Assembly: GCA_030648835.1 (NCBI GenBank)
Contig: JAUSGT010000001.1
Coordinates: 69,010 to 133,009 of the forward strand
Length of the DNA: 64,000 bases
Source: Candidatus Moraniibacteriota bacterium
GTDB lineage: Bacteria > Patescibacteriota > Minisyncoccia > Moranbacterales > UBA1568
Direction: 5' to 3'
Shown: positions 2,207 through 38,026 of the stretch, piece by piece
Position numbering within the stretch: position 1 is the first letter of the stretch
Layout: each line of letters opens with the position of its first letter
Made by a program: the position numbers and the translations under genes
The notes under the pieces: generated by a model
Database searches by the model: none
Seen by the model: only the letters and a program-made list of their open reading frames with translations
Told to the model about the DNA's origin: nothing

Positions 2207-2352
2207 TTTTTCCACAAGCAACCTTTCCGGGAGCCGTTCGCTTGTCCAGCGACGAACTCCACTTATGAACTTTTTTTGATCCATCCCGTAAGAACGGGAT
2301 GGCACCGTGCTCAAAAAAACTTCAACTCTCCCGGAAAGATTCTTGTGAAAAA
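2207..2352 (+). repeat. Family-A ~145-bp structured intergenic element, copy 1 (MITE-like or ncRNA)
   Basis: Terminal inverted repeats CACAAG...CTTGTG and CTTTCCGGGAG...CTCCCGGAAAG. Conserved core GAACTTTTTTTGATCC-hairpin-CACCGTGCTCAAAAAAACTTCAA. Similar elements at 12623, 15729 and 24605. Confidence 0.7.
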
Positions 2353-2417
2353 CGTAAAATTTTTATCTTCGTCTTGATACTATCGCTTTTTACTGTTATA
2401 CTACCTCTTCTCTGTTT

Positions 2418-5045
2418 TTGCTTATGCCAAAAAATATTGTACGGAAAAATGCCACCGACAAATTTGGTCCATCGGAGTGGATCATTGTCAAAGGCGCCCG
2501 CACTCATAATCTGAAAAATATCACCGTCGAGATGCCTCGCAATAAAATGGTGGTGTTTACGGGACTGTCCGGTTCGGGAAAATCATCATTGGCTTTTGAC
2601 ACGATTTTTGCCGAAGGACAACGGCGCTATGTCGAATCTCTTTCCGCTTACGCGCGGCAGTTTTTGAACACCATGCAGAAGCCGGATGTGGATGAAATCG
2701 TCGGTCTCTCACCGGCCATTTCCATCGATCAGAAGTCCGCCAGCCGCAACCCGCGTTCGACCGTGGCGACGGTGACGGAAATATATGATTATTTGCGTGT
2801 GTTGTACGCGCGTCTCGGCCGGCCACACTGTCTCGTCTGCAAGAGAGAAATAGAGAAGCTTTCAACGGAAGAAATGTTGGAAGTCGTTTCCGAGAAAGTA
2901 CAGCAGATTCTGGTAGAGAGTAAAAAAAGTCCCATAAAATCCCGTAAGACGGGATCACGGGGTAAACAGCGTCTTATGATTACGGCACCTCTGGTGCGTG
3001 GACGCAAAGGAGAATACTATCAGTTGCTCTATAATGCGCTCGGTCGTGGTTTCGCGGAGATCTTGCTTGATGGAGAGCGCAAGAGTCTGCGTGAACGGAT
3101 TCTGCTTTCCAAAAACAAAGCCCATGATATCGATCTCGTCGTGGATGAATTGCCACTTCTGGAATTTGAGAAGTTTCCGGAGACATCCGAGGAGCGTCTT
3201 TCGGAGGCGGTACAGCGCGCGCTCGAAGAAAGCGACGGGCTGGTGAACATCCATATCGGATCGGAAAATTTTGTTCTCTCATCGAAGTTCGCTTGTCCGT
3301 ATGACGGATTCTCATATCCGGAAGTGGAACCGCGATTATTTTCTTTCAACTCCCCCTACGGTGCGTGCGAGGCTTGCCATGGTCTGGGGACGAAACATTT
3401 TTTTGGCGACGATCCTTGTGAAGTCTGCCATGGGTCGCGTTTGCGCGAAGAAGCACTCCATATTTTTATCGGTGGGAAAAATATCGTGGAAGTGACGGCG
3501 CTTATGATCGGGGACGCGAAGAAGTTTTTCGATGGTTTGAAATTGACTACGCGTGAGAAACAGATTGCCGCGGTGGTATTTCGGGAAATCGGCGCGCGGT
3601 TGCAATTTCTTCTCAATGTCGGTTTGAATTATCTTTCTTTGGATCGACGTTCCAACACGCTTTCCGGTGGTGAGGCTCAACGTATCCGACTGGCGTCGCA
3701 ATTGGGTTCGCAATTGGTCGGGGCACTCTATGTGCTTGATGAGCCGACGATTGGCTTGCATCGACGTGACAATGATCGTCTCATTGAAACGTTGAAAGCG
3801 CTACGCGATTTGGGGAATACGATTATCATCGTCGAGCATGATGAGGATACGATTTTCGCTTCCGACTATATCGTCGATATCGGTCCGGGAGCGGGGGTGC
3901 ACGGCGGAGAAATCGTGGCATCCGGTTATCTGGACGACCTGCTTCTTGCCGATGCTTCAGAAACCCAGTCGCTCACTCTGCGCTATTTGCGTGGTGAAGA
4001 AAAAATCGCCATCCCCGAAAAAAGGCGGAGCAAAGAAAAGGGTCAGCTCAAAATTCGTGGCGGTGAACTTTTCAATATCAAGAATATGAATGTGGAGATT
4101 CCATTGGGGCGTTTGAGCGTCGTCACGGGAGTTTCCGGTTCCGGGAAATCCACATTTCTCTACGAGATCGTTCACAAGAATCTTCAGGCGCGTTTTGATC
4201 GGCGTTACAAGTTGAATGAGGTGTTCCATTGCCAATCGTTTAGCGGAAGCGAATATTTGTCTCGGGTGGTGCTTATCGATCAGAGTCCGATCGGGCGTAC
4301 CCCGCGTTCCAACCCGGCGACGTATACCGGAGCCTGGACGCATGTGCGCGATCTTTTCGCCGCGGCAGAAGAGGCGCGCGTGCGTGGATGGAAGGCCGGA
4401 CGTTTTTCCTTCAATCGCCCCGGCGGACGCTGTGAAACCTGCGAGGGCAACGGGTTTATCGCGGTGGAGATGCATTTTTTGCCGACGGTCTACGTGCCGT
4501 GCGATGTCTGTGACGGCAAGCGTTTCACCAAAGAAACACTTGAGGTGAAATACAAACACAAAAATATCTATCAGATACTCCAGATGACGATCGAAGAAGC
4601 TTTTTCATTCTTCACGGATATTCCGGCGATTGCCGATCGTCTGAAAACACTGAATGAAGTCGGCCTGGGGTACTTGAAACTGGGCCAATCGGCCACGACT
4701 CTTTCCGGTGGTGAGGCTCAGCGAGTGAAGATTTCCTCGGAACTCTATCGGCCACACGTGGGACGTACGATCTATCTTCTCGACGAGCCGACGATCGGAC
4801 TGCATTATGAAGATGTGAGGAAACTTTTGGAAATTCTCGAAACACTCGTGGTCAAAGGCAATACAGTCTTGGTCATCGAACACAATATGGATTTTATCAA
4901 ATCGGCCGATTATGTCATCGATATCGGGCCGGAAGGCGGGGCCGGAGGCGGAAAAATCGTGGCGGTCGGTACGCCCGAAGAAGTGGCACAGGTGTCGCAT
5001 TCTCACACAGGTCAATATTTGAAGAGAATCTTGAAGAAAGGTTAA
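2418..5045 (+). CDS. uvrA2: UvrA paralog (class-II-like, lacks UvrB-binding domain)
   Basis: Two ABC ATPase modules and Zn-finger Cys pairs, with the UvrA N-terminus [11 protein letters not shown]...[14 protein letters not shown]. Only about 9 aa lie between ACEACHGLG and [11 protein letters not shown], where the canonical UvrA at 12922 carries a ~115-aa UvrB-binding domain. Begins with TTG at 2418; the first ATG is at 2424. Confidence 0.85.
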
Positions 5046-6233
5046 TTACTTTTTCTTCGCTGCTATCACTTCTTTGTACAGCGCGCTCCAGTCGGAGGCG
5101 ATTTTGGCACGAGAAAATTGTTTGACAGTGTGGAGCCCTCCTTGACCCAAACGGATACGTTCCTCGGGGTGGGTGTAAAGAAAGAGAATGTGCTCCGCGA
5201 GTGTTTTCACGTCGCCCGGTTCGATGAAGAAGCCATTTGCCTCTGTAATATATTCTGCCAAACCTCTGGCTTTGGCTCCGATGACGGGGAGACTCGTTGC
5301 CATAGCTTTCATAAGGCTCAGACTTTGCGTTTCCGCCGTACTGGCGATAGCAAAAACATCCGCAGCTTTGTAGATCAAGGCGTGTTTCTCGGTGGAAAGT
5401 GTTCCGAAGAATTTTACTTGTTCGTTTACTCCGAGTTCTTCCGCCAGTTTTTTGAGTGAGACTTCTCCTTCGCCATGGCCGGTGACGGCAAAGTTGATTT
5501 CCGGTATTTTCTCCTTGACCATTGCTATGGCGCGGATGATGATATCAATGTGTTTTTCCGGCGCCAAGCGACCCGTGTAGAGGACAGTGAAGGGAGAAAG
5601 CCGGAAAAATGTTTTGGCGGCGTGGGCTTCTTCTTGCGTTGGTGGGGAAAAGCTGTCGAGATCTATGGGATTGGAAATGACTCGGCAGGGTTTGTGAAAT
5701 CCATGTCGTTTCATTTCGTCTAAGATGCCCTGTGATGGCGCGGTGACGAAATCACAATGGTTGTAGTACCACGAGACGAAATTGAGAGCCAGTTTTTCGA
5801 GTAGGGGGCTTTGGACAGGACCGTAGCGCATGAATTCTGTGATAGGTGTATGACTGGTGCCGACGAGCGGTACGCGCAAGAAAAAGCTGGCTGCCAACCC
5901 TTCCATACCGCAACCGAAAAAAAGATGGGTGTGGATGATATCGGGCTTATTCTTGATAAAAAACGAGCGGAGAAAAGTTGGGATGACCATGCGCCCCTGT
6001 TTGGTTGGGGCAGGGTACGGAAAAGAAAAATACCGATGAATCTTGACTCCTTCGCTGATGTTTGGTTCGCTGGGCGGGACATTAGAGGTAGCGAAATCCT
6101 TTTTGGAATAGTGAGGGACATAAAAATCGATGTCGTGTCCCAAGCCGGAGAGTTCGCGGGCAGATTCGATGAGCGAATCCGATATGCCGGAAAGTTCCGG
6201 ATAAAAATTTTCCGAAAACATGGCTATTCTCAT
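5046..6233 (-). CDS. Glycosyltransferase family 4 (GT-B)
   Basis: N-terminal MRIAMFSENFYPELSGISD and a C-terminal GT4 core (EGFGLP-like region). Confidence 0.8.
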   Translation of the reverse strand: MRIAMFSENFYPELSGISDSLIESARELSGLGHDIDFYVPHYSKKDFATSNVPPSEPNISEGVKIHRYFSFPYPAPTKQGRMVIPTFLRSFFIKNKPDIIHTHLFFGCGMEGLAASFFLRVPLVGTSHTPITEFMRYGPVQSPLLEKLALNFVSWYYNHCDFVTAPSQGILDEMKRHGFHKPCRVISNPIDLDSFSPPTQEEAHAAKTFFRLSPFTVLYTGRLAPEKHIDIIIRAIAMVKEKIPEINFAVTGHGEGEVSLKKLAEELGVNEQVKFFGTLSTEKHALIYKAADVFAIASTAETQSLSLMKAMATSLPVIGAKARGLAEYITEANGFFIEPGDVKTLAEHILFLYTHPEERIRLGQGGLHTVKQFSRAKIASDWSALYKEVIAAKKK

Positions 6234-6338
6234 AAGAGAAAATGGCAGATTATTGTTTATACTGTCCGAGACTCTGTCTCGAAGGATAGAAGAGAACGTA
6301 GTTTTTGTCTACATACGTTTGTGGTAGAATAGGGCTGT

Positions 6339-7079
6339 ATGAAGCTCTCTATTATCGTTCCGGCCTACAATGAAGAGGCCTATATCGGAAAGTGTCTCGC
6401 ATCGATAGCGGCTGAGCAGGCACGCGGTCGTTTTGAAGTGGAAACGATTGTTGTCAACAATGCGAGTACCGATCGGACTGCCGATGTCGCTCGGACTTTT
6501 CCATTTGCTCGGGTGATTGATGAACCAAAAAAAGGTCTGGTACGTGCCCGCCAAACGGGTTATCAAGCATCCAGTGGTGAATTGGTCGCAAACGTGGATG
6601 CGGATACGCTCATGCCGGAAGGCTGGATTGCGCAGGTGTTCAAAGAGTTTTCCGTTCATCCGGAACTGGTAGCGCTTTCCGGTCCCTATATTTATTATGA
6701 TTTGTCGTCGGTGACAAACTGGTTTGTGAGTTTCTGGTATCGGATGGGACAAGGAGTGAGTTTTCTCGATAGTTTGGTTATGGGGCGGACCGGTACCATG
6801 CTCCAGGGTGGAAATTTCATTTTGCGGCGGAGCGCTTTGGAGAAGGCTGGCGGATTTGATCTCAACTTCGATTTCTATGGTGAAGATACCGCTATCGCGA
6901 AAGAAATGGGTCGTCAGGGCAAGGTAAAATTTACGTTCTGTCTTCCGATGTATACCTCCGGTCGCCGGTTGCGGGGAGAAGGGATTTTTACGATGGCTGG
7001 GAAGTATGGGATAAATTTTTTCTGGACAATAATTTTTGGTAGAGCCTACTCAAAGGAGTATAAGGATATTCGGTTATGA
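6339..7079 (+). CDS. Glycosyltransferase family 2
   Basis: MKLSIIVPAYNEE...VVNNASTD...DADT are GT2 signature motifs. Confidence 0.85.
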   Translation: MKLSIIVPAYNEEAYIGKCLASIAAEQARGRFEVETIVVNNASTDRTADVARTFPFARVIDEPKKGLVRARQTGYQASSGELVANVDADTLMPEGWIAQVFKEFSVHPELVALSGPYIYYDLSSVTNWFVSFWYRMGQGVSFLDSLVMGRTGTMLQGGNFILRRSALEKAGGFDLNFDFYGEDTAIAKEMGRQGKVKFTFCLPMYTSGRRLRGEGIFTMAGKYGINFFWTIIFGRAYSKEYKDIRL

Positions 7080-9472
7080 AAGAACAGTCTTGGCTGGAGA
7101 ATTTTCTGAAAAAGTATCAAGATCTCGGCTACATCATTGCGCGCAATGTTTTTTTGTTCACCAATGGTGTCATCGCGCTCGTGGTTGCACTTCTTATTGT
7201 TTTCGGAGACATTCAAGCGGGGATTTTTTTGGGGCTGGTGCTTTTCATCAATATGACCTTGGGGCTGGGGCAGGATATCCGGGCTTGGTATGCTTTGAAA
7301 AAGCTCCAGCTTTTGACGGCTCCCCGTTCGCTCTGTGTCCGTTCTGATGGGGCAGAGGAGTCGGTGCTGACGGAAGAGATAGAGAAAGGAGATAGGCTCA
7401 AAATCAAGACGGGCGATGAAATTCCGTGTGACGGAACATTGATGGAAGGACATTCATTGGAACTCAATGAAGGATTGCTCACCGGTGAGGCAGCTTCATT
7501 CTCGCGGAAGAAGGGGGATCATATTTTGGCCGGAAGCATTATTACCGCCGGAAGCGGTCTTTTGTCCGTGGATACTGTTTTTAAAAACAGTCGTATTGCC
7601 CGTATGACAGAGGGGATCAAGACGTATCAAGTAAACGAGAGTCCGATTCAGAGAGCGGTCAATCAAGTCATTCAATATTCGGGATATATTTTGGTTTTGG
7701 TTATGGGGTTTATTGTGTGGCGCGGCGTGTTCACGCATACGTCGCAATTGACTATCATCAAAAACATCGGAGCGCTCGCCAGCACTATCGTTCCGCAAGG
7801 ATTGGCCTTCGCGATGACACTCCTTTTCGCTTATGGAGCGGCACATCTCTATCGGCGCAATGTCTTGCTCCAAGAGGTCAACGCGACGGAAAAACTGGGG
7901 CGGATAAAGAATTTGTGCATGGACAAGACGGGGACACTGACGGAGAACAAACCGACAGTGGAAAAAATGATGATTCCCCGAGGGATGAGTGACGCGGATG
8001 CGAGGACAGCGATAGCGCTCTATATCGGTGGATCCGGTGATTCTTCGCAGACTCTTTTGGCGCTGCGCGAATATGTCGGTGATGTGAAAACCACCGGGCA
8101 AGTCATCGATACGACTTCTTTCTCTTCCTGGCATCCCTATGGAGCGCTCGAGACGGTCGTTATGGGAGCGACGCATATTCTCATACTGGGGGCAGGAGAG
8201 TCGCTCTTGCCGCATGTGGCGGACGAGACGGAAAGGGCGTGGTTTGCAAACATTGAAAAACAGGAGGCAGAGCAGGGCAAGCGTATCGTGTGTTTGGCGC
8301 GGGCGCAAGCGGAACACTTACCCAAAGATTTATCTCAGGTGAAACTTTCCCTTCTCGCCGTCTTTGTCTTATCGAGTCGTTTGCGTCCGGGGATCAGGGA
8401 GGCCATCCAGTTTTTCCAAGACCGCAAAGTGCATATTCGCATTATTTCCGGTGATCATCCTGAGACCGTGCGCGCTGTCGCGCTTGGGGCAGGGGTGAAA
8501 TATTGCGATCAGATAGTGACCGGTAAAGAAATGCAGAGCTGGACAGCGGAAGATTTTTTCAAGCGAGCCGGCCGGTATTCGATTTTTGCCCGCACTCTAC
8601 CGGAACAAAAAGAAAAAATCATTGAAGCTTTGAAAAAAGACGGATTCACGGCGATGGTGGGGGATGGCGCCAATGACGCTTTGGCTATCAAGAAAGCCGA
8701 TCTGGGTATTGCTATGTTCGAGGGCGCGCCCGCTACTCGACAGCTGGCCTCCGTCGTACTTATGAACAACAGTTTCACGGCTCTGCCGGGTGGCGTGGAA
8801 CTGGCCGACAGTATCATCAAAAATGCGGAAATTTTTGCCAGTTTGTTTTTTGGCGTCGCTTTGACCGGCTTCTTGCTTTTTATTGGAGTGAGCGCACTCG
8901 GTTATCCATTTCCGCTTACCCCACTCAATATCACGCTCATCAATTATTTTACGGTTGGTTTTCCCGGCATATTGGTTTCCTACTGGACGATCCGTCCGGC
9001 AGAAAAAGTGAAGACCCCAAGCACCGGAGCATTCCTCAATATCATCTCCCCCTTCATTATTTGGTCGGCTGTCCTCCAGGTTGTGACGATCCTCACCGTT
9101 TTTATCCTGAGTCCGGAAAGTATGAAGGTGGCGGCATCCAATCTTTTCGTCATTTTTGCTTCTATTATTGTCGGGTATGTTTTTTTCCTGTTTGCTCCCG
9201 GTATCTATCGGGGTACGCTTCTCGCCACTCAAAGGAGGGATCTCATTATCCTTACCGTCGTGGAAATTCTTTTTCTCACGCTTGTTTTTCACATTCCTTT
9301 TTTTCTGCGATTTTTTGAGATTATGGGAAGTCTCTCCGGTTCCCGTATTCTTGTCCTGGCGGCCGTCTCTTTGGGAATATATGGACTACTTCAATATGGG
9401 GTTGCCCGTTTGTTCCGAAAGTTTTCGCCCGTGTCTTCCGGAATCGGACAGAATTCTTTCTTGGACACCTGA
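7076..9472 (+). CDS. P-type cation-transporting ATPase
   Basis: DKTGTLT phosphorylation motif (CMDKTGTLTEN), the GDGANDALA hinge motif and multiple TM segments. ATGA overlap with the upstream GT2 gene. Confidence 0.85.
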   Translation: MKEQSWLENFLKKYQDLGYIIARNVFLFTNGVIALVVALLIVFGDIQAGIFLGLVLFINMTLGLGQDIRAWYALKKLQLLTAPRSLCVRSDGAEESVLTEEIEKGDRLKIKTGDEIPCDGTLMEGHSLELNEGLLTGEAASFSRKKGDHILAGSIITAGSGLLSVDTVFKNSRIARMTEGIKTYQVNESPIQRAVNQVIQYSGYILVLVMGFIVWRGVFTHTSQLTIIKNIGALASTIVPQGLAFAMTLLFAYGAAHLYRRNVLLQEVNATEKLGRIKNLCMDKTGTLTENKPTVEKMMIPRGMSDADARTAIALYIGGSGDSSQTLLALREYVGDVKTTGQVIDTTSFSSWHPYGALETVVMGATHILILGAGESLLPHVADETERAWFANIEKQEAEQGKRIVCLARAQAEHLPKDLSQVKLSLLAVFVLSSRLRPGIREAIQFFQDRKVHIRIISGDHPETVRAVALGAGVKYCDQIVTGKEMQSWTAEDFFKRAGRYSIFARTLPEQKEKIIEALKKDGFTAMVGDGANDALAIKKADLGIAMFEGAPATRQLASVVLMNNSFTALPGGVELADSIIKNAEIFASLFFGVALTGFLLFIGVSALGYPFPLTPLNITLINYFTVGFPGILVSYWTIRPAEKVKTPSTGAFLNIISPFIIWSAVLQVVTILTVFILSPESMKVAASNLFVIFASIIVGYVFFLFAPGIYRGTLLATQRRDLIILTVVEILFLTLVFHIPFFLRFFEIMGSLSGSRILVLAAVSLGIYGLLQYGVARLFRKFSPVSSGIGQNSFLDT

Positions 9473-9516
9473 TGGGGGTGATTTCACGAAAAGTGCCCTT
9501 GGTGGTATACTTTTAT

Positions 9517-9613
9517 CCAGCACCTTCCAGAATACCCCGTGATCTTGCCACGGGGATGAATGGAAATATAAATCCTTTCCATATGGCTTAATACCCCGTG
9601 GTGAAGGTGCTGG
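9517..9613 (+). promoter_or_regulatory. Candidate cis-regulatory structured RNA (riboswitch/attenuator-like) upstream of 9653 gene
   Basis: Outer stem CCAGCACCTTC/GAAGGTGCTGG encloses the element. Inside, CACGGGG can pair with either of two CCCCGTG copies, giving mutually exclusive hairpins, and there is an ATGGAAA/TTTCCAT hairpin. No known riboswitch class recognised. Confidence 0.3.
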
Positions 9614-9652
9614 ATTTACCAGAGTCAAATAACCTATTCTTAATTTAATACT

Positions 9653-10225: not shown

Positions 10226-10271
10226 AAAATACAGCAGTCCGACCGCTGTAAGTACACGTTTATAATTTCGT

Positions 10272-10315
10272 AAAAGCCGCCCTAAGTTTATCGAAGGACG
10301 GCTTTTAATTTTTCT
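10272..10315. terminator. Bidirectional rho-independent terminator
   Basis: AAAAGCCGCCCT...AGGACGGCTTTTAATTTTT: a hairpin flanked by an A-run and a T-run. Confidence 0.5.
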
Positions 10316-10359
10316 CGAGAGGGGTAATGAAGAGACAGACGGGGATGAGTAACGAAAAG

Positions 10360-10590: not shown

Positions 10591-10644
10591 AGGATTGATA
10601 TAGAGGATTATTTGTGTCTCAAGTATAGCATTTTTCAAAGTTGA

Positions 10645-11185: not shown

Positions 11186-12604
11186 ATGCCAAAGTTATGG
11201 GAGAAAATTCAAACGTTTGAGGCGTTTCGGAAAAAAAATAGCCTACCGGAAGTCCCGGGAGTGTATTTCTTCTTGGACGAGAAGAAAAAACTGCTCTATA
11301 TCGGCAAGGCGACGTCACTGCGTGATCGGGTAAAGAGCTATTTTTCGTCAGATATCGGCAGAACACGGGGACTCAAGATCGAGCGCATGCTTGAAAAAGT
11401 GGGTTTTGTGGCGCACCGGAAAACGGACTCGGTATTGGAGGCGCTCATTCTGGAAGCCAGTCTTATCAAGGTTCACCAACCTTCATATAATACCGACGCG
11501 AAGGATGATAAGAGTTACAATCACGTCGTCATTACCAAGGAGTTATTTCCCCGAGTACTTATTGTGCGCGGCCGCGACCTTGGGAGGCAAGAACCAATAA
11601 CCAATAACCAAAGACCAAAGACTGACAATCAACAGCAGAAAATGCGATATAAATATGTATTCGGACCGTTTCCGGCTGGGGGAGCGCTGCGTGAAGCGAT
11701 GAAGATCGTTCGCAAGTTGTTTCCTTTCCGAGACAGATGTATTCCGTTTGAAGAAAAAAGTATTAGTCATCTTGAACGTAGTCGAAGCCTGCCTGCCGGC
11801 GGGCAGGGATCTCGAGGGAGGAGAAGGAAGAACAGCAGCGAGATTCTTCGCGTTGCTCAGAATGACAAACCTCCCGCGTGTTTCAACAGACAAATCGGTT
11901 TGTGTCCCGGCGTGTGTACGGGAGAAATAACGGCGAGGGAGTATGCGCGCACCATCAACCATATCCGTTTGTTTTTCGAAGGGCACAAGGGAATGCTCAT
12001 AAAAAAATTGGAACGCGAGATGAAAACGGCGGCAAAAAATCTGGAATTCGAGTCAGCTGGGGGGATCAAAAAAACGCTTTTCGGATTGCGACATATTCAG
12101 GATATGGCGCTTATCAAGAATGACCAACAGCCAATAACCAATGACCAACAAGAAAAGATGCGGATTGAGGCGTATGATGTGGCTCATTTGGGCGGTAGTG
12201 CTAGCGTGGGAGTGATGGTCGTTTTGCAAAATGGCAGGTCAGCGAAAGAATTCTACAGAAAGTTCACATTACGTGGTGGGCACGAAGGCAACGACTTGAC
12301 GGCTTTGGAAGAAATCTTGAAGCGGCGCTTGAAACATCTTGAGTGGCCTCTGCCGGAAATTATCGTGGTGGACGGGGCACTCCTCCAACTTGGCGTGGCG
12401 GAGCAAGTGTCGCTCTCTTTGGGAATTACTATTCCTATTGTCGGGGTGGTGAAGAATACCAAACATCAGCCGGAACGTTTGATTGGTCCGGAAACATTGA
12501 CCAGGCGTTTCAAAAAAGAAATTCTTCTGGCCAATAGCGAAGCCCACCGCTTTGCTATTACATTCCACCGTGTGCGTCGGGGAAAGGAGTTTTTGAACAA
12601 GTAG
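11186..12604 (+). CDS. uvrC: UvrC-like excinuclease subunit (no C-terminal HhH domain; contains inserted repeats)
   Basis: GIY-YIG domain (PGVYFFLDEKKKLLYIGKATSLRDRVKSYF), Cys-rich region, UVR-like helix and RNase-H-like endonuclease domain (IEAYDVAHLGGSASVGVMVV...EAHRFAITFHR). The protein ends about 100 aa short of a canonical UvrC. It carries a ~35-aa in-frame insertion around 11780-11830 and two QPITN(D/N)Q short repeats. Confidence 0.8.
   Translation: MPKLWEKIQTFEAFRKKNSLPEVPGVYFFLDEKKKLLYIGKATSLRDRVKSYFSSDIGRTRGLKIERMLEKVGFVAHRKTDSVLEALILEASLIKVHQPSYNTDAKDDKSYNHVVITKELFPRVLIVRGRDLGRQEPITNNQRPKTDNQQQKMRYKYVFGPFPAGGALREAMKIVRKLFPFRDRCIPFEEKSISHLERSRSLPAGGQGSRGRRRKNSSEILRVAQNDKPPACFNRQIGLCPGVCTGEITAREYARTINHIRLFFEGHKGMLIKKLEREMKTAAKNLEFESAGGIKKTLFGLRHIQDMALIKNDQQPITNDQQEKMRIEAYDVAHLGGSASVGVMVVLQNGRSAKEFYRKFTLRGGHEGNDLTALEEILKRRLKHLEWPLPEIIVVDGALLQLGVAEQVSLSLGITIPIVGVVKNTKHQPERLIGPETLTRRFKKEILLANSEAHRFAITFHRVRRGKEFLNK
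11786..11806. repeat. Family-B GC-rich palindrome copy inside uvrC (in-frame)
   Basis: CCTGCCTGCCGGCGGGCAGGG, followed by AAGAACAGCAGCGAG. It matches the intergenic copies at 12877 and 57630. Confidence 0.5.
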
Positions 12605-12622
12605 AGTTTCAAAACAGCTTTC

Positions 12623-12770
12623 TGCCACAAGAATCTTTCCGGGAGGCTTGAAGTTTTTTTGAGCATGGTTCCGGCGTTTCGACGGATCAAAAAAAGTTCA
12701 CGCAAAGAGTTTGTCCGCTGGGGCAAACGAATGGCTACCCGGAGAGGTTGCTTGTGGTCGGAAAGCTCAA
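12623..12770 (-). repeat. Family-A structured element, copy 4 (inverted orientation)
   Basis: The reverse complement aligns along the full length with copies 1-3 (CCACAAG...CCGGGAG...TTTTTTTGAGCATGGTTCC-hairpin-GGATCAAAAAAAGTTC...CTTGTGG). Confidence 0.65.
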
Positions 12771-12876
12771 CGACAGAGAGGTGTGAGGAAATAAGTTTTT
12801 GTCCACAGAGGGGTAGTCTTGCCAGCACGCGAAAAAGAGAGTATCCTAAGAAACGACCATATCTTTTTTCGGACAT

Positions 12877-12898
12877 ACCTGCCTGCCGGCAGGCAGGT
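12877..12898. promoter_or_regulatory. Perfect 22-bp palindrome ACCTGCCTGCCGGCAGGCAGGT upstream of uvrA (Family B; operator candidate)
   Basis: Perfect dyad symmetry, 24 nt upstream of the uvrA start. Confidence 0.45.
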
Positions 12899-12921
12899 CT
12901 CAAGAATAGCAGACGCTCTTT

Positions 12922-15720: not shown

Positions 15721-15728
15721 TTTTTTTG

Positions 15729-15876
15729 GGTCTTTTCTCGCAAGCAACCTTTCCTGAGGTCGTTCGTTCACCCAGCGGTGAACTTCTCTTATGAGATTTT
15801 TTTGATCCGTCAGAACGACGGCACCGTGCTCAAAAAAATCTCAACTCCTCCGGCAAGATTCTTGCGAGAAAAGACC
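15729..15876 (+). repeat. Family-A structured element, copy 2
   Basis: Perfect 16-bp terminal inverted repeat GGTCTTTTCTCGCAAG / CTTGCGAGAAAAGACC. Conserved core with a covarying central hairpin (CCGTC/GACGG). Confidence 0.7.
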
Positions 15877-15921
15877 AACGTGGATTTTATTAGAAATTAG
15901 GTATTAGAAATTAGATACTTT

Positions 15922-16851: not shown

Positions 16852-16863
16852 AGTGTGCTATAA

Positions 16864-18117: not shown

Positions 18118-18261
18118 GTTCGAAATATTTTTTTAGAAAATTTCTTTGTTGCAGCTTCCAGTGCTCGACGCTGTATGCGACATACAGCTTACTTCGCGCT
18201 TCAGCTGTGCCGCGAACTTTTCTCAAAAAAATACTTCGAAAGTATTAGAAAGTTTTTTCTT

Positions 18262-19659
18262 ATGCAGACTAGTAGTTATCGGTTACCGGTTATTAGCTAC
18301 AAAGGTTTCACGCTTATTGAATCCTTGGTTTTTTTGTTTATTTTTGCCATTGTGTCGATGGTTTTTCTTCAGACGTACGCCGTTGGAACGCGCCTCATCA
18401 TCGAATCCAAGAATCGTCTCGGCGCGACCGCGCTGGCAAACCAGAAAATGGAAATTGTTCGGAGTATTGATTATACGACTATCGGGACCAAACACTGGAA
18501 TGGCACCGCGTGGGTGTATGGCATTCCGGCGGGGGATATTCTGGAAAACGAGACAATCAATGTGAATACGGTGCACTACAGCGTCGATACGGACGTTCGC
18601 TATGTGGATGACGCGTTTGACGGGAAATCAGGCGACAGTCCCAACGATACGATACCCAACGACTACAAGCGTGTGAAAATTTCCGTCTCATGGGGGGCTC
18701 AAGGCGCGGATCAAACCGTGATACTGACGAGCGATGTCGCTCCGGATGGTCTGGAAACGGCGGGGAGCGGCGGAGTGCTTTCCATCAATATATTGGATAT
18801 GCCGGGGGCGGGTGTATCGGATGCGACCGTGCGTATTGTCAATACATCCGCGGGCGTGGACACGACGACACAGACCGACGCGGCAGGCAATATCACTTTG
18901 CCGGGTGCGGCCGTCGGTGATCAGGAATACGCCCTGACAATTTCCAAGAACGATTATTACGGGGCGGTGACCTATCCGCCGTATCCGACTTCATCTTTCA
19001 ATCCGGTGGATATTCATGCTTCCGTCGTCGCCAACGCGCTCAATCCGGATGTCGTCAGGATAGATCGGGCGGCGGATATCGAGATCGATACGAAAGATCC
19101 TTTTGGTACAGCTGTTTCGAATATCAACTTTTCAATCACGGGAGGGAGAGTTATCGGAAATGTGCCAAATACCAATCCGGTTCAGCCGGTGTACGATTTT
19201 ACCCAGGATACGAGTACGGATGTTTCCGGGCAGAAGACATTTGCGAATCAGAGTTTTGGTACATACACGGTGGCTGTCTCGGGTTCCGGGTATACTTTTT
19301 ACAAGATCAGTCCGGAGAGTTCTCTCGTGAACGGCTTGGATGTTTCACCCGGCGAGGATTTTGTGGGGCAGGTGATTCTTCTTGATAACGCTCTTGGCTC
19401 GGTTTTTGTCAAAGTGACCAATGCGGCTGACGGAAGCGCCATAGAGGGGGCAGCGGCGCATCTGACCAATGCTATCGCCGGATATGATACGACACAAACT
19501 ACCGACAAGTTTGGCTTCGCCTATTTTCCGACAGCCCTTCCGGGGCTTGTGGCCGGAACATACACTTTGGAAGTCAGCAAGTCCGGTTTTCAGACGGATA
19601 ACGGGACATTTAGTGTCGGCAGCGCGCTTGTCACACGGACTATTCAGTTAGCACTTTAG
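18262..19659 (+). CDS. Large prepilin-type N-terminal domain protein (pilin-like) with Ig/carboxypeptidase-regulatory-like repeats
   Basis: Short leader then KGFTLIESLVFLFIFAIV (class III signal). Repeated beta-rich modules follow (TVRIVNTSAGVDTT..., TYTLEVSKSGFQTD). Confidence 0.65.
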   Translation: MQTSSYRLPVISYKGFTLIESLVFLFIFAIVSMVFLQTYAVGTRLIIESKNRLGATALANQKMEIVRSIDYTTIGTKHWNGTAWVYGIPAGDILENETINVNTVHYSVDTDVRYVDDAFDGKSGDSPNDTIPNDYKRVKISVSWGAQGADQTVILTSDVAPDGLETAGSGGVLSINILDMPGAGVSDATVRIVNTSAGVDTTTQTDAAGNITLPGAAVGDQEYALTISKNDYYGAVTYPPYPTSSFNPVDIHASVVANALNPDVVRIDRAADIEIDTKDPFGTAVSNINFSITGGRVIGNVPNTNPVQPVYDFTQDTSTDVSGQKTFANQSFGTYTVAVSGSGYTFYKISPESSLVNGLDVSPGEDFVGQVILLDNALGSVFVKVTNAADGSAIEGAAAHLTNAIAGYDTTQTTDKFGFAYFPTALPGLVAGTYTLEVSKSGFQTDNGTFSVGSALVTRTIQLAL

Positions 19660-19663
19660 GCAT

Positions 19664-20299
19664 ATGGTATCAATGAAAAAAAATCCGAAGGCGATGACAC
19701 TCATAGAATTGTTGATGGCTATCGCAGTTATGTTGATCGTTATGGAAGGGTTCACCCTGTTGCTTGTTCGCAGCTGGGATACAAACAAGTTTATTCTGGA
19801 AGAGGGAATGGCTTCCGCGGCTGCTTCACGCGCGAGTAATAAGATTATCAGCGAACTGCGACGCGCCCGGCAGGGAGACGATGGTGATTTTCCGGTAGAG
19901 TCCGGTTCGTCTTTCGATTTGAAAGTATATCTTGATGTCGATAATGACGGTGTGACGGAACGGGTACATTATTATCTGGACAAAGATGCCGACGAATTGA
20001 AGAAGGGAATCGCCAACCCGCTTGGTACGACACCGATTACCTATCCGGAAAACGACGACAGCGTGTCGACGATGACGACGTACGTGGTCAATGCCGACAG
20101 TGACCCGGTGTTTTACTACTACAACCGGGATTATCCGGGTGACACGGTGAACAATCCGCTTGCGGTACCGCTCGGTAGTGGAGTCTCCGAGGTGAGGTTG
20201 GTCAGGGTGCATCTTTTGGTGAATATCGATCCGGTCCACGCGCCGAACAATGTTAACATTGAATCCTTCGCTGATTTGCGTAATCTGAATTCGTTATGA
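19664..20299 (+). CDS. Prepilin-type N-terminal domain protein (minor pilin/pseudopilin)
   Basis: N-terminal KKNPKAMTLIELLMAIAVMLIV. Confidence 0.65.
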   Translation: MVSMKKNPKAMTLIELLMAIAVMLIVMEGFTLLLVRSWDTNKFILEEGMASAAASRASNKIISELRRARQGDDGDFPVESGSSFDLKVYLDVDNDGVTERVHYYLDKDADELKKGIANPLGTTPITYPENDDSVSTMTTYVVNADSDPVFYYYNRDYPGDTVNNPLAVPLGSGVSEVRLVRVHLLVNIDPVHAPNNVNIESFADLRNLNSL

Positions 20300-21717
20300 A
20301 AATACGAGAAAACAAAAGTGGGGTCAGAGGGTCGGCGCTGGTATACGGTCTTGTTATTTTGACGGTGGTTTCGATTGTCCTGACATCGATTATCGGTTTT
20401 GTGGCATCGCAGACCAAATATTCATTGCAGGTTCATTCTCGCGAAGAGGCGTTTCAGGTTGCCGAAACAGGCGTTCATTTCTATCGCTGGTATCTGGCGC
20501 ATACCGTGGATGGTCGGACGACGCAGCAGGTGAAAACTTTTTGGGCAACGGGCAACCCATACGGTGTCGCGACGCCCTATGAAGTGGAATACAAAGACCA
20601 ATCGGGAGTAGCCATCGGCAAGTATCGTCTGGAAGTCACTCCGCCGAGTGGTGGATCGACTATCGTCACGGTCAAGTCGACCGGGTGGCTGTACAAATAC
20701 CCGGAGGCTACCCGTGTTTTGGAAGTGCGTTTCAGACGGCCATCGTGGAGCGAGTACGTCGTATTGTCGAACAATAATATCCGCTTCGGGTCCGGCACGG
20801 ACGTACAGGGAAAAATCTTTTCCAATGGCGGTGTCCATTTCGACGGGGTTACGAACAATATCGTGTATAGCGCCGTGGGTACGTACTATGATTCGGATAA
20901 CGATGTACACGCCACCAAGCCTGGTGTCTGGACATCCTGGGCCAACGAATACAATACCACCATGGGAAGCGACGTTTTTTTGGCCGGGAAACGTTACCCG
21001 CCGGACTATTCGATCGCGACTATCCCGTTCAGCTCGGTGTATGGAGATCTCAATCTGATGAAAGCGGATGCGACAACGGGCGGGACATATTTCGACAATA
21101 GCGGGCAGGGGAGACATATTATTCTGAAAACGAACGGCACATTCGATATCCGTATTGTGCAGAGCACCAACAGCAGCACCAACAACATCAATAATTATTC
21201 CGGGGCGTGGCAAAATCGTTCCATTCCGCAAGACGGGATTATCTTTGTTGAGGACAATGTCTGGTTGGAAGGGCAGGTCGATGGCCAGCGGGTGACAATC
21301 GCCGCCGCGAACCTCACTTCTTCAGCTTTGAAAAGTGTCTATATCAATGGAAATATCCGTTATACCAACTATGATGGGACGGATGGTATCGGCATCGTGG
21401 CTCAGAATGATATCGAAATCCCCAAGAACTCCCCGACCGATCTACGTATCGATGGAGCAGTGCTTTCACAGGAAGGCCGTGTTGGTCGCCAGCATTACAC
21501 GAATTCCAATTGTCATTCCTGGGCCTGTGAGGACCACAAGAACAGCATCACTATCTTTGGCGCGATGGCGAGCAATCAGCGCTACGGCTTCGCGTGGACG
21601 GACGGTACCGGCTATACGACGCGCAATCTCTACTATGACAATAATCTGTTTTATTTCCCACCGCCATATTTTCCGACCGGTACGCAGTACCAGATGGATT
21701 TGTGGGAGGAGAAATAG
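20296..21717 (+). CDS. Pilus-associated membrane-anchored protein (hypothetical)
   Basis: N-terminal hydrophobic anchor (ALVYGLVILTVVSIVLTSIIGFV). Translationally coupled (ATGA overlap) to the preceding pseudopilin gene. Confidence 0.5.
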   Translation: MKIRENKSGVRGSALVYGLVILTVVSIVLTSIIGFVASQTKYSLQVHSREEAFQVAETGVHFYRWYLAHTVDGRTTQQVKTFWATGNPYGVATPYEVEYKDQSGVAIGKYRLEVTPPSGGSTIVTVKSTGWLYKYPEATRVLEVRFRRPSWSEYVVLSNNNIRFGSGTDVQGKIFSNGGVHFDGVTNNIVYSAVGTYYDSDNDVHATKPGVWTSWANEYNTTMGSDVFLAGKRYPPDYSIATIPFSSVYGDLNLMKADATTGGTYFDNSGQGRHIILKTNGTFDIRIVQSTNSSTNNINNYSGAWQNRSIPQDGIIFVEDNVWLEGQVDGQRVTIAAANLTSSALKSVYINGNIRYTNYDGTDGIGIVAQNDIEIPKNSPTDLRIDGAVLSQEGRVGRQHYTNSNCHSWACEDHKNSITIFGAMASNQRYGFAWTDGTGYTTRNLYYDNNLFYFPPPYFPTGTQYQMDLWEEK

Positions 21718-21720
21718 TGA

Positions 21721-21816
21721 GAGCTTTTTAGCTGATTAGCTTCTTAGCTGGTAGGTCACGGAGAATCTGGTTTTATGAATTATTTACAAGCTAAAAAGCT
21801 ACCAGCTACCAGCTAG
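21721..21816. repeat. AGCT-containing direct/inverted repeat cluster between pilin genes and pilM
   Basis: TTAGCTG/TTAGCTT/TTAGCTGG triplet on one side and AGCTACC x3 on the other, mutually complementary. Possible attenuator or protein-binding iterons. Confidence 0.35.
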
Positions 21817-21859
21817 AAATGTGATACAATGAGTAAGAGAAAAATACATATCAAAAGCA

Positions 21860-22954
21860 ATGAGTATATTGCAGAAAAAAATTTTTGATCTTTTCCCGAG
21901 CGCCTTCGGACTGGACTTGAGCGATCTTTCGATGAAAGCGGTGTGGCTCAATCGGACCAGACAGAACGACTCTATTGCCAGTTTTGGGACGGTGCCACTT
22001 CCCGCGGGTAGCGTGATTGACGGTGAAATTATGAATAGCGAGGCGGTGGAGAGCGCCATTGCCACCTTGCTGGAAATATCCGGTCCCCAGAAAATAAAAA
22101 CTCGCCAAGTGGTGTGTTCATTGCCGGAAACGAAAGCTTTTCTGCGGATTATCTCTCTCCCCGCGATGGAAAAGGACGAGGTCAAAGAAGCCATCAAATG
22201 GGAGATCGAGGCGAACATCCCTCTGACACTTGATCAGGTGTACTATGATTGGCAGATTCTGGATCTCAACCTGACTCAGGAAAAAGGCAAGATAAGCGTG
22301 CTCGTGGTGGCGGTGGCGCGGAGTGTGGTGGATCAGTTCCAGACGGTACTGGCGACAGCCGGCTTGGAAGTGGTCGGTCTCGAAACGGAGTCTATTGCTC
22401 AGGCTCGGAGTCTTTTGGCCGAAAAAAACGAGAAACGCACGACGCTTATCATCGATATCGGCGATCGTCGGACGAGCTTTCTCATCGCTATCGGAAGTAC
22501 GCCGTGCTTCACCTCGAGCGTACCGCTTTCTTCACAGATGGTGACGGATGCCATTTCCAAGTCGCTGCATATTTCTTTCGATGAAGCGGAAGCGATCAAA
22601 ATTAGCCAGGGTTTGGGGTCACTCGCGCTCAAGAGCCCGGTTTTGAAAGCGGTCCTCCCGGTGCTCGAGAATATAGCCGTGGAAATCGAGAAGTCCATCG
22701 ATTTTTATCTGAGCAACCTCCACTATTCGGAAAATATCGACTCCATTGTGCTGTGTGGGGGAGGATCGAATATGCAGGGACTCTTGCCATTCCTCTCGCG
22801 CCGTTTGGGGAGACCGATCGAATTCGGCAATCCTTGGGTGAATGTGCGGCTTGGGGAACAGCTGCCGCTTATCGATCGCAAACATTCCGTACAGTATTCA
22901 ACCGCTATTGGCCTGGCGCTTCGAGGCCTCGATGAATATGAAGACTTTGCTTAA
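21860..22954 (+). CDS. pilM: Type IV pilus assembly protein PilM (actin-like ATPase fold)
   Basis: PilM-like N-terminus (GLDLSDLSMKAV...) and the length match. It is followed by overlapping pilN- and pilO-like genes. Confidence 0.75.
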   Translation: MSILQKKIFDLFPSAFGLDLSDLSMKAVWLNRTRQNDSIASFGTVPLPAGSVIDGEIMNSEAVESAIATLLEISGPQKIKTRQVVCSLPETKAFLRIISLPAMEKDEVKEAIKWEIEANIPLTLDQVYYDWQILDLNLTQEKGKISVLVVAVARSVVDQFQTVLATAGLEVVGLETESIAQARSLLAEKNEKRTTLIIDIGDRRTSFLIAIGSTPCFTSSVPLSSQMVTDAISKSLHISFDEAEAIKISQGLGSLALKSPVLKAVLPVLENIAVEIEKSIDFYLSNLHYSENIDSIVLCGGGSNMQGLLPFLSRRLGRPIEFGNPWVNVRLGEQLPLIDRKHSVQYSTAIGLALRGLDEYEDFA

Positions 22955-23501
22955 CCTCCTGCCGGAGGAAAACAAGAAAAATATCCAGCGCAAGCTCCAC
23001 TTCCGCTTTTTTCTGTGGCAACTTTTTCTTATGTGTACTCTGGGAGTATTCTATCTGAGTATGCTCATGAGCATATATGTCATTCTCGATTTTCAGCTGG
23101 GGAGCCTGCAGGTGGCTGGAGAACAATATGATGTGACATACACGGAACAGGGGACGCTCAGCGTGTATCAGAAAAAATTCAAAGACACGAACGCGACCGT
23201 CGAGGTGATCGGAAAAATCGAAAAAAATCATTTCTCTTTTACGCAGGTATTTTTGATTCTTGATACACTGCTTCCGGAAGGGGTTGCTCTGGATCGTCTG
23301 ACCACCAAGAATTACACAGTTATGTTGGCCGGGCGCGCGGCTACACGGGACGATATTCTGACTCTGGAATCCCGTCTCGAGGAAACAGTCTGTGTAAAGA
23401 ACGTCAATGTGCCACTCTCCAACCTTTTTTCGCAGGAAAATATTGATTTTCAGATTGATTTTGAGATGCAAAAAGAGTGTTTGCAAAAAAGTACCTTATG
23501 A
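22932..23501 (+). CDS. pilN: PilN-like bitopic membrane protein
   Basis: MNMKTLLNLLPEENKK... then a single TM helix. Overlaps the pilM 3' end. Confidence 0.55.
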   Translation: MNMKTLLNLLPEENKKNIQRKLHFRFFLWQLFLMCTLGVFYLSMLMSIYVILDFQLGSLQVAGEQYDVTYTEQGTLSVYQKKFKDTNATVEVIGKIEKNHFSFTQVFLILDTLLPEGVALDRLTTKNYTVMLAGRAATRDDILTLESRLEETVCVKNVNVPLSNLFSQENIDFQIDFEMQKECLQKSTL

Positions 23502-24238
23502 TATTTACTCCATACAAAAAATATACCACGCGCATTATTCTCTTCGTCCTGCTTTTAGGCATGGTGGGCATTATTTGGTATGGTATAGTGCCTCTCAAAC
23601 AGGCCATATACGAAAAAATGAGGAGCATTCAGGAATTTTATGCCATGCGGGAGAATCGACAGAAACAAGTAGTGAGACTGCCGGAGCTCAAGGCACAATA
23701 TGACGTGATTCTTCAGAATGAAAAACTGCTTGACGTTCTCATTTCGGAAAACGAAATAGTGAATTCCGTGAAAACATTTGAAGGGATCGCCGATGAAACT
23801 CATGTCGAAATGAGCATTACTGCGAAAGAGAATGGGCAGATTACCGAATCGAAGAAGATCGTTGCCAAAGCGGATCAACCGGTCAAAGGAGACGCCGATG
23901 TTTCTTCAAAAAACAGCGCGGGCAAAGAGAAGTCCACGGATATCTTGAGTGACATCCCATTCGATTGGTACCTGTATCTGAATGTCAGAGTCCGGGGGCG
24001 CTACGAGGATGTTGTCGTATTTTTGCACAAGATGGAAACGCTTCCCATGGGACTCGACGTTATTCGCCTTGAGATGAGGAGGGGAGAGGCAGCGGATGCA
24101 GTTGGAAGCGTTTCCGGAAGCGGTATCAATCCTTTCCTGCTGTCGAGTGGCGATACACAAGCGGAACCTTCGGTTGCACAAAAGGATGTTTTTGAAGCGG
24201 TGTTCGATGTTTTGATATATGTGGATAAAAAAAATTAA
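23498..24238 (+). CDS. pilO: PilO-like bitopic membrane protein
   Basis: ATGA overlap with pilN, an N-terminal TM helix and a coiled-coil segment. Confidence 0.5.
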   Translation: MIFTPYKKYTTRIILFVLLLGMVGIIWYGIVPLKQAIYEKMRSIQEFYAMRENRQKQVVRLPELKAQYDVILQNEKLLDVLISENEIVNSVKTFEGIADETHVEMSITAKENGQITESKKIVAKADQPVKGDADVSSKNSAGKEKSTDILSDIPFDWYLYLNVRVRGRYEDVVVFLHKMETLPMGLDVIRLEMRRGEAADAVGSVSGSGINPFLLSSGDTQAEPSVAQKDVFEAVFDVLIYVDKKN

Positions 24239-24241
24239 TGT

Positions 24242-24586
24242 ATGACTATCCCATTCCCTCCCATTTTTAAAAAGTTATTGGGGAACTCTTCCTTGAGAGG
24301 CGCCATATTTTTCTGGTATCGGCGTTATAAAGTGGTTTTCTTTTTTGGTTTTCTTATTGTACTTTCGATCGGCGGATGGAATTGGTATCAGAGTCTCTAT
24401 CAATATCATTTCAGCGATGATGAGAAAAAACAATACATAGACTCATACTTCAGAGAAACAACTTTCAAGGAAACACAATTTCGCGAAACAATAGGCGATC
24501 TCAAGGCACGTGCTCTTCTGCACGAAAAGTGGCTTCCCCTGACACGCAATATCTTCGAGGGAAAAGGGATCCAGCCGAGAAAGTAG
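24242..24586 (+). CDS. Small membrane protein (114 aa), last gene of pilus operon
   Basis: Single TM helix (VVFFFGFLIVLSIGGW). No family recognised. Confidence 0.45.
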   Translation: MTIPFPPIFKKLLGNSSLRGAIFFWYRRYKVVFFFGFLIVLSIGGWNWYQSLYQYHFSDDEKKQYIDSYFRETTFKETQFRETIGDLKARALLHEKWLPLTRNIFEGKGIQPRK

Positions 24587-24604
24587 TTTTCTCTCTGTTT
24601 TGAT

Positions 24605-24753
24605 TCTCCTCATCACAAGTAACCTCCCCGGGCAGACACTCATTTCCCCCAGCGGGGAAACTCGTTGCGTGAACTTTTTTTGATCCGCCTGAGACGGCGG
24701 AACCGTGCTCAAAAAAACTTCAAGCCTCCCGGGAAGATTCTTGTGAGAGGAGG
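24605..24753 (+). repeat. Family-A structured element, copy 3
   Basis: TIRs CCTCATCACAAG/CTTGTGAGAGGAGG, conserved core and a covarying hairpin (CCGCC/GGCGG). Confidence 0.7.
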
Positions 24754-38018: not shown

Positions 38019-38026
38019 TAAAAGTT

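Follow-up and report, generated by a model that had tools for sequence, protein, structure and literature searches.

What are the four closely similar, strongly folded stretches that lie between genes in a 64,000-nucleotide piece of a Candidatus Moraniibacteriota genome, and do they have anything to do with uvrA, the gene that two of them bracket? The DNA in question (GenBank assembly GCA_030648835.1, contig JAUSGT010000001.1, positions 69,010 to 133,009 of the forward strand) is hereafter called the window, and coordinates refer to it unless preceded by the number of a related locus (L). A first-pass annotation had described the four stretches as copies of one element, family A, either a miniature inverted-repeat transposable element (MITE) or a small structured RNA family, mostly adjacent to uvrA genes and perhaps able to invert uvrA. 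The repeat family and its conserved fold have held up, and the comparison between MITE and structured RNA proves roughly apt, since copies are present or absent at orthologous sites and one of them is an insertion with a target duplication; a functional link to uvrA and the inversion are not supported. The family consists of dispersed, non-coding elements, each about 150-170 nt long and few in number, which were encountered solely in Candidatus Moranbacteria, tiny and uncultured members of the Candidate Phyla Radiation (CPR). Insertions are rare and fall where one transcription unit has ended at its stop codon and the promoter of the next lies a short distance ahead, a hot spot shared with several palindromic elements of unrelated kinds. 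Once resident, copies are held, in sequence and in pairing, by purifying selection.

The four copies were recovered, at the places and on the strands first described, by three means: an nhmmer profile built from them (E 6e-50 to 7e-54 for each copy over the 64 kb), a covariance model, R1 (144-162 bits), and a 19-nt core probe that matched exactly four sites in the window against 0.09 expected by chance. Neither nhmmer nor R1 found a fifth copy across the window. The aligned stretches constitute one element, with a mean column identity of 75% when the flanks are counted and a pairwise likeness of only 75-86%. All are intergenic, copy 2 having been inserted into the former last codons of uvrC, and none of the open reading frames (ORFs) they contain is conserved across copies. 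The nested inverted repeats, and in general the central hairpin that varies while remaining complementary, were seen as first described, except that the hairpin of copy 2 contains one mismatch. Two details are corrected here: the CGCAAG/CTTGCG variant with a perfect 16-bp terminal repeat (GGTCTTTTCTCGCAAG / CTTGCGAGAAAAGACC) is the third copy, at 15729, and not the second; and the element exceeds the original ~145 bp by some 20 nt, through a copy-specific complementary extension of the outer stem. Since 24 more copies were found beyond the window, and covariation is present, family A stands as a real feature.

A conserved secondary structure of the repeat family had been proposed from compensatory changes, and both RNAalifold and a pairing count over 28 copies back it. 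A single strand of the element folds into a three-way junction (RNAalifold, 21 copies), with compensatory changes at 23 of the 40 pairs in a MAFFT-based alignment. The outer stem is long and pairs both ends in every copy, i.e., it forms terminal inverted repeats; past the conserved CRCAAG/CTTGYG each copy has its own extension of 6-10 bp, which differs between copies, stays complementary and is compensated even between orthologs (GGTC/GACC in copy 3 of the window versus GATC/GATC in L110). Such variable outermost pairs are unlike transposase-binding ends. Within the junction, hairpin 1 carries a conserved loop, CCAGC(G/C), and a nearly invariant U7GA/UCA7 helix encloses hairpin 2, variable in sequence and length, together with a conserved 8-nt bulge, (C/A)ACC(G/A)UGC; junctions, loops and bulge are strongly conserved in sequence. 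Over 28 copies, standard pairs fill 96% of pair cells, both-side changes occur at 35/40 pairs, and the covariation score of 0.486 is reached by none of 500 shuffles (0.179), while shifting the 3' partners by 1-3 columns lowers pairing to 32-59%. The 28-copy alignment was fitted to the covariance model, which favours the structure; the MAFFT-based count had already reached 23 of 40. Each window copy also folds far better than its shuffled counterparts on the strand of the first-pass annotation: z is -2.5 for copy 2 and between -6.3 and -8.7 for the other three. A frame of four codons, NTG-NNN-TTT-TTT-TGA (Met/Val-x-Phe-Phe-stop), is conserved within the 5' half of the U7 helix (2267-2281, 15786-15800, 24671-24685, the same place in copy 2 and other copies); it has no upstream Shine-Dalgarno sequence and probably merely reflects the sequence of the stem.

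Beyond the window, the 24 full copies all lie in Candidatus Moranbacteria-type assemblies, from at least 10 species. Scanning one genome per species for the pattern TTTTTTGATCC-N(12-40)-GCTCAAAAAA returned 95 stretches, among which true relatives were confined to Candidatus Moranbacteria/Moraniibacteriota assemblies with two apparent exceptions: three contigs of a bin labelled 'Patescibacteria group' and one 2.6-kb contig, probably misassigned, from a Bdellovibrionales bin. Searching the scanned loci with R1 gave 22 full copies, five of which form a diverged B subfamily, and metagenome contigs supplied additional family-A copies. No more than five copies per genome were recovered from the sampled stretches. 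Among viral contigs the pattern gave four matches, none of which the covariance model accepted as a true copy. The Rfam 15 search returned no match at gathering score for the whole window and none at E<=10 for copy 3; the comparison of copy 3 with Rfam gave chance microRNA-type matches only, with E>1. The window holds no tRNA or tmRNA, and a full-text literature search on Moranbacteria, Patescibacteria and CPR bacteria found no description of family A. In some genomes the tails of an A copy and a B copy face each other across 10-30 nt, and the centre between them, GTGACATCGTGTGA, is conserved (L006:7253-7582, L063:2935-3267, L073:7445-7783, L064:2451-2685). This doublet is a super-palindrome of ~320 nt retained in three genomes; in L064 the A half has shrunk to a 55-nt hairpin.

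The evidence for insertion comes from the relatives of the window's uvrA locus. Eighty metagenome loci encoding UvrA relatives were retrieved and 43 were searched with R1, about 35 of these with at least 66% UvrA identity. Among relatives whose UvrA is 80-94% identical, the orthologous uvrC–uvrA and uvrA–downstream sites occur both filled and empty. In the 43 loci, family A follows uvrA only in L110, L114 and L125, where the DNA at the site is near-identical, and precedes it, reversed, only in L098 and L129, with a weak reversed cousin in L105; neither side has it in L096 (UvrA 94% identical), L097 (89%) and many others. Copy 3 thus has orthologs in L110, L114 and L125, and another in L085, all 95% identical, and copy 2 has its reversed ortholog in L098/L129 and is missing from L096 and L110. 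Aligned to the latter two empty sites, which read ...GGGGAAAGAGTTTTTG followed directly by TCCACATAG, where TAG is the uvrC stop, the filled site of the window runs from ...GGGGAAAGGAGTTTTTG into AACAAGTAG, which contains the new stop, then through the element to GAGGAAATAAGTTTTTG and TCCACAGAG. Copy 2 is therefore an insertion of 206 nt with an imperfect direct duplication of ~17 nt, of which 8 nt, AGTTTTTG, are exact on both sides (12588-12595 and 12794-12801), and the inserted AAC AAG TAG (12596-12604) is listed as three new uvrC codons plus a new stop. Copy 4 is flanked on both sides by TTTTGA. The only public contig found to encode an identical UvrA, L180 (Logan contig SRR13727527_104688), starts 195 nt before uvrA, within copy 2 (window ~12727), where the repeat apparently breaks the short-read assembly.

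The spacer downstream of uvrA is occupied in other relatives by palindromic elements that are unrelated to family A and belong to at least five structured families. In L098/L129 it holds a three-way junction of ~250 nt, which in L098 is built on a long stem enclosing a pair of hairpins (-74 kcal/mol, z -4.3); AT-rich hairpins are found in L096 and L097, elements of ~220 nt in L100 and L120, and a spacer of merely 9-50 nt in L101, L104, L106 and L108. Some of these families are dispersed as well, the L105 type recurring in L071, L089 and L047 and the L096 type near 57.6 kb of the window. There, at ~57605-57755, an AT-rich palindromic element akin to the one after uvrA in L096 lies between ORFs 56529-57596 and 57779-59020 and is a member of a second dispersed repeat family.

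In the window, family A marks the boundaries between ydjC and a UvrA-like gene, between a uvrC-like gene and uvrA, between uvrA and a type IV pilus cluster (PilC, a PilX-like protein, PilM and PilN), and between this cluster and a radical-SAM gene; L010 and L089 also have a copy at the ydjC–uvrA2 junction. In other genomes the adjoining genes are ordinary housekeeping ones, encoding ComM, BipA, GatB/MiaA, a HhH-GPD glycosylase, ABC-F, RNase HII, TrpRS, ArgRS, NrdD, a P-type ATPase and MurD. The element begins 6-60 nt past the upstream stop codon, and the strand called plus in the first-pass annotation is the sense strand of the neighbours at 12-13 of ~15 independent single-copy sites, the reversed ones being copy 2 with its L098 ortholog and the L014 copy. 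Promoter-like sites for the genes that follow copies 1, 2 and 4 are located past the element, which is thus not a 5' leader. Since the promoter of the UvrA-like gene, laid out identically in L089, is downstream of copy 1, this copy is outside the 5' untranslated region of that gene. A riboswitch or 5' leader of uvrA-type genes was rejected on these grounds, promoters between element and gene and diversity of the neighbour genes. Every Moranbacteria uvrA locus examined (window 12819-12876; upstream of uvrA in L096-L121) retains the uvrA promoter together with a leader motif, GAAAAAGAGAGTATCCT..GAAACGACCATATCTTTTTTCGGACA, with an inverted pair, GAAAAAGA/TCTTTTTTC, surrounding the -10 hexamer; this could be an operator or a leader hairpin.

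Once inserted, copies diverge much more slowly than the DNA around them. Copy 3 and its L110 ortholog are 95.4% identical, whereas the four-fold sites of the adjacent uvrA are at 63.7%; the corresponding figures are 96.8% for the element against 67-79% for flanking DNA between L024 and L007, and 92.8% against 62.3% at four-fold sites for the B copies of L063 and L064. Between L010 and L089 the element is 96.7% identical against 75% at the four-fold sites of ydjC and 90.7% at those of uvrA2, so that the excess is clear in three of the four orthologous pairs and small for L010/L089 against the uvrA2 flank. Copy 2 and its L098 ortholog, itself scoring 117 bits with R1, are 68% identical over a background of four-fold sites saturated at 39%. 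As copies within the window are only 75-86% alike, the similarity between species does not reflect a recent burst.

Table 1. Coordinates of family-A copies, of the copy 2 insertion site, of neighbouring promoters and of unrelated elements after uvrA (aa, amino acids).
Feature	Position	Strand	Description
Family-A copy 1	2201-2359	+	R1 146 bits; fold -56 kcal/mol, z -7.7; sense orientation; between ydjC-like gene 1407-2162 (+; YdjC Pfam match) and promoter of UvrA-like gene 2418-5045 (+)
Family-A copy 2	12614-12768	-	R1 155 bits; antisense to both neighbour genes; between uvrC-like gene 11186-12604 (+) and uvrA promoter
Family-A copy 3	15727-15878	+	R1 162 bits; perfect 16-bp terminal inverted repeat; 7 nt past uvrA stop (15720), before 309-aa gene opening type IV pilus cluster
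Family-A copy 4	24602-24757	+	R1 144 bits; between last pilus-cluster ORF 24242-24586 and promoter of radical-SAM gene 24833-25879; Pfam matches
Left target copy	12579-12595	+	GGGGAAAGGAGTTTTTG, still uvrC coding; filled window site aligned to empty L096 and L110
Inserted segment, 206 nt	12596-12801	+	AAC AAG TAG (12596-12604), copy 2, right target copy
Right target copy	12785-12801	+	GAGGAAATAAGTTTTTG
Remnant of ancestral uvrC end	12802-12810	+	TCCACAGAG, which is TCC ACA TAG (Ser-Thr-stop) in L096
Sigma-70-like promoter, UvrA-like gene	2374-2402	+	TTGATA-17-(TG)TATACT, downstream of copy 1; same layout in L089
uvrA promoter	12819-12847	+	TTGCCA-17-TATCCT, downstream of copy 2; conserved in relatives lacking the element
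Promoter-like site, copy 4/radical-SAM gene	24796-24824	+	TTGACC-17-TATACT, read from sequence
Element after uvrA, L098	L098:6809-7060
Element after uvrA, L100	L100:6800-7045
Element after uvrA, L120	L120:6800-7045
Element after uvrA, L096	L096:5923-6052
Element after uvrA, L097	L097:6872-7012
Element after uvrA, L105	L105:4336-4760

Taken together, the data are best read, in our view and with about an even chance of being right, as a structured intergenic repeat of mobile origin, of the ERIC/BOX/Correia/REP kind, that was retained because it would act in cis where operons end. According to this model, the element, once inserted between a stop codon and the next promoter, mostly in sense orientation, would serve the 3' boundary of the operon as a structural module. 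In a read-through transcript it would form a large terminal hairpin that may stabilise, end or insulate the transcript and that may bear a putative binding site for a protein. A similar mode of action has been proposed for ERIC, BOX/SPRITE, Correia and REP elements. Judged by eye, the outer stem has a U-rich tail on the forward strand in every B copy and in about a third of A copies; hairpin 1 of copy 3 has a terminator-like score.

Several observations weigh against this reading. One is a bias of wobble pairs, about 4:1, towards the strand that is antisense to the adjacent genes: on the forward strand, consensus pairs include 44 A.C against 11 G.U (two columns supply 18 of the 44 A.C), and minimum-free-energy structures hold 81 G.U pairs on the reverse strand versus 19 on the forward. 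The reverse strand also folds better in 26/26 copies tested, by a mean of 9.9 kcal/mol, and an RNA acting in sense should show the opposite wobble bias. Moreover, a U-rich tract directly past the outer stem is seen by eye in only about one third to one half of copies (~1/3 of A copies); an automated count of such tracts gave no usable signal, because the A/U flanks pair with each other in the fold. A canonical terminator (A-run, hairpin, T-run) precedes the element in L042, L025, L006 and L064, and where it does, sense transcription of the element may be poor. As for mobility, the AT-rich flanks of 29 copies yielded scattered 6-8-mers but no target duplication of fixed length, and no transposase partner came to light in the flanks examined; none of ~50 flanking proteins scanned contains a transposase domain. 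Local mutation bias was considered as a cause of the strand asymmetry and ruled out, since copies in the opposite orientation share the wobble bias. Reciprocally, across 21 copies no -10-like hexamer recurs at a constant spacing on the reverse strand, and this strand shows no terminator and no consistent U-tract after the structure. It is this paradox of strands, set beside the lack of a reverse promoter and terminator, that leaves the sense-strand boundary module ranked first, at no better than an even chance.

According to a purely selfish alternative, family A is a non-autonomous MITE whose transposase is encoded elsewhere, whose stems are terminal inverted repeats and which has no role in the host. 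The element has several traits of prokaryotic MITEs (150-170 nt, no coding sequence, terminal inverted repeats and dispersed copies that are present or absent), and this alternative also accommodates the target duplication of copy 2 and the other dispersed palindromic families found at the same sites. However, purifying selection in place is not what it predicts: selfish copies decay where they lie, yet orthologs remain 93-97% identical next to four-fold sites at 62-75%. The internal hairpins and the copy-specific outer stem co-vary, although transposase binding would need neither, and the low copy number, the inconsistent target duplication and the missing transposase argue in the same direction. 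We regard this explanation as unlikely.

A different set of explanations takes the strand bias at face value. The active strand of family A would then be the one antisense to the neighbours, and CPR bacteria would possess a new class of structured nucleic acid with a function of its own, be it a multi-copy small RNA, a self-cleaving ribozyme, the RNA component of a ribonucleoprotein or a folded site in single-stranded DNA for some recombination or replication machine. If true, this would explain the 4:1 wobble bias, the near-invariant junction, loop and bulge, and a conservation about ten times slower than at synonymous sites; the proposal as a whole is nevertheless doubtful. Its RNA version, a free-standing molecule transcribed from the reverse strand as a multi-copy small RNA, a protein-bound RNA or a self-cleaving ribozyme, is suggested by the better reverse fold of every copy tested, by a wobble asymmetry that is also found in old copies of the other orientation, by the sequence conservation of junctions, loops and bulge, and by bidirectional terminators at the far end in some loci. 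Against it stand the missing promoter and U-tract, the A/B pairs, whose 10-30 nt of separation leave no space for divergent promoters, and the lack of any Rfam ribozyme or small-RNA match, and we consider this version distinctly unlikely.

Folded DNA offers another way to make one strand matter, with precedents in integron attC sites, the ends of IS200/IS605 and REP/RAYT. The element would here be a single-stranded site for a recombinase, an HUH-type transposase or the replication machinery, its orientation being set by the direction of replication. With DNA energy parameters the advantage of the reverse strand persists (4.5-10 kcal/mol in the four window copies), and, as with attC, the element sits directly after ORFs in sense orientation while the better fold belongs to its bottom strand. 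The window has positive GC skew throughout and carries most of its genes on the + strand, so that gene direction and replication direction are inseparable there. Yet the flanks examined encode no integrase, RAYT or TnpA, the ends lack attC core sites (RYYYAAC/GTTRRRY), the neighbours are core housekeeping genes and not cassettes, and the better-folding strand would lie on the leading-strand template, which is less exposed. This makes a folded-DNA role improbable, with only a slender chance of being right.

The association with uvrA that first drew attention to the locus is real within the window. Three of the four copies adjoin uvrA genes, copy 1 lying upstream of the gene for an 875-aa UvrA-like protein and copies 2 and 3 flanking uvrA, and uvrA/uvrA2 junctions make up 3 of ~16 independent sites, with a mild excess of repair and replication neighbours (HhH-GPD glycosylase, RNase HII, NrdD and ComM at others) that is a lead only, because the category was defined after seeing the data. 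Elsewhere, the 43 metagenome uvrA loci hold merely five family-A copies and one weak cousin, and copies in other places have unrelated neighbours. Most relatives lacking the element keep the same uvrA promoter and leader, which implies that uvrA does not need it. As to inversion, the arms formed by copies 2 and 3 are only 81% complementary over 73 nt, with a longest exact run of 15 nt; uvrA is co-directional with the following gene, the same or a related one, in every relative whose flanks were read, uvrC lies directly upstream in most relatives (not in L111, L113 and L121), and no relative carries both flanking copies. A uvrA-specific device, whether a DNA-damage regulatory element of uvrA-family genes or inverted repeats flipping uvrA, is thus largely refuted, given also the promoters that intervene between element and gene, the many copies beside unrelated genes (BipA, GatB/MiaA, ArgRS, TrpRS, ABC-F, MurD), and the lack of a recombinase gene nearby and of an inverted uvrA in any relative.

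Two further candidates were discarded: a hammerhead or other known ribozyme core, in the absence of a core motif by eye and of an Rfam match, and the template/variable repeat pair of a diversity-generating retroelement, all copies being intergenic and structured.

The favoured reading, a repeat of mobile origin kept at operon boundaries, gains perspective from the known families of bacterial intergenic repeats. ERIC (IRU) elements of enterobacteria are imperfect palindromes of ~127 bp that form a long hairpin, lie in or beside transcribed 3' regions in either orientation, are conserved in sequence across species while their locations differ between genomes, and have been proposed to act through the RNA hairpin. 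They are reviewed in PMC10969869. Family A resembles them in its similar size, intergenic position in either orientation, long folded structure and sequence conserved at differing locations; it differs in its unrelated sequence, its three-way junction with two conserved internal hairpins, the lack of an observed TA target duplication, a far lower copy number and its restriction to CPR bacteria. Correia elements are marked by conserved 26-bp terminal repeats, by a TA duplication, and by an IHF site and promoter elements within the ends; they too adjoin repair genes, for instance uvrB. In contrast, the ends of family A are its least conserved part, promoters lie outside the element and no TA duplication is seen. 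Correia elements are MITEs of Neisseria, 100-155 bp long, with inverted termini, insertion/empty-site polymorphism, location at gene boundaries and a proposed effect on transcripts as a hairpin (PMC10969869, PMC2229807), and family A is comparable in size, inverted termini, filled and empty sites and placement at gene boundaries, including those of repair genes.

In pneumococci, BOX, RUP and SPRITE are unrelated structured repeats that cluster at shared intergenic spots, SPRITE being terminator-like (PMC10969869, PMC3049150), much as at least five families use the site downstream of uvrA in Moranbacteria. Unlike BOX, which is modular (boxA/B/C) and of high copy number, family A offers no match to it in sequence or structure. 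It recalls REP, BIME and REPIN, which often come in inverted pairs, in being an extragenic palindrome after genes, and the pairing of A with inverted B in L006, L063, L073 and L064 is reminiscent of REPIN doublets, the sole trait shared with REP/REPIN-RAYT systems. REP units are simple hairpins of 20-40 nt that number in the hundreds and are linked to a RAYT gene, whereas family A is a branched structure of 150 nt in few copies whose flanks hold no RAYT or Y1 transposase. Integron attC sites, conserved mainly in structure, are likewise imperfect palindromes directly after ORFs with an antisense strand that folds with bulged bases; family A instead ends in CRCAAGCAAC...GATTCTTGYG without RYYYAAC...GTTRRRY cores, is not accompanied by an integrase or cassette array, is strongly conserved in sequence, and has copies 3-10 kb apart beside housekeeping genes. 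In the case of invertible DNA switches, the diverged arms, the missing recombinase gene and the single orientation in all relatives set family A apart. In sum, it resembles ERIC, Correia, BOX/SPRITE and REP in behaviour, without their sequence, their defining ends or their target duplications, and is best filed as a new repeat family, the first that we found described for a CPR lineage.

Other repeats share the window. A G+C-rich perfect palindrome of 20 bp, CCTGCCTGCCGGCAGGCAGG, occurs three times where none is expected, in the uvrA leader (12878-12897; missing in L096 and L110), inside the uvrC-like ORF (11788-11807) and inside the AT-rich palindromic element (57640-57659), and looks like a small REP-like insert. 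The same uvrC-like ORF contains short CCAATAACCAA-type repeats (11588-11621 and 12111-12158) between its GIY-YIG and RNase H-like domains. Separate repeats at 32215-38442 and 36000-48000 comprise two 300-nt units that are 88% identical, the sequence AAAGCCAAGAGCAGACAGAGTAAATATACTGAGC... in five copies and the palindrome ATTCTCACATTCTGCAGAATGTGAGAAT in three; these repeats adjoin a stretch of low G+C content (0.33-0.39 versus ~0.48 elsewhere) that may be an island.

To our knowledge, CPR bacteria, with their tiny genomes, are not known for repeats or mobile DNA. A 2024 review of MITEs makes no mention of them. One CPR lineage nevertheless carries several structured intergenic families that compete for gene-boundary sites, at least one of them under strong purifying selection. 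Covariance model R1 can be applied to any CPR genome, and repeats that break short-read assemblies matter for the binning of such genomes. In bacteria whose transcription signals are almost unstudied, family A provides candidate 3'-end or insulator modules, and possibly a new RNA.

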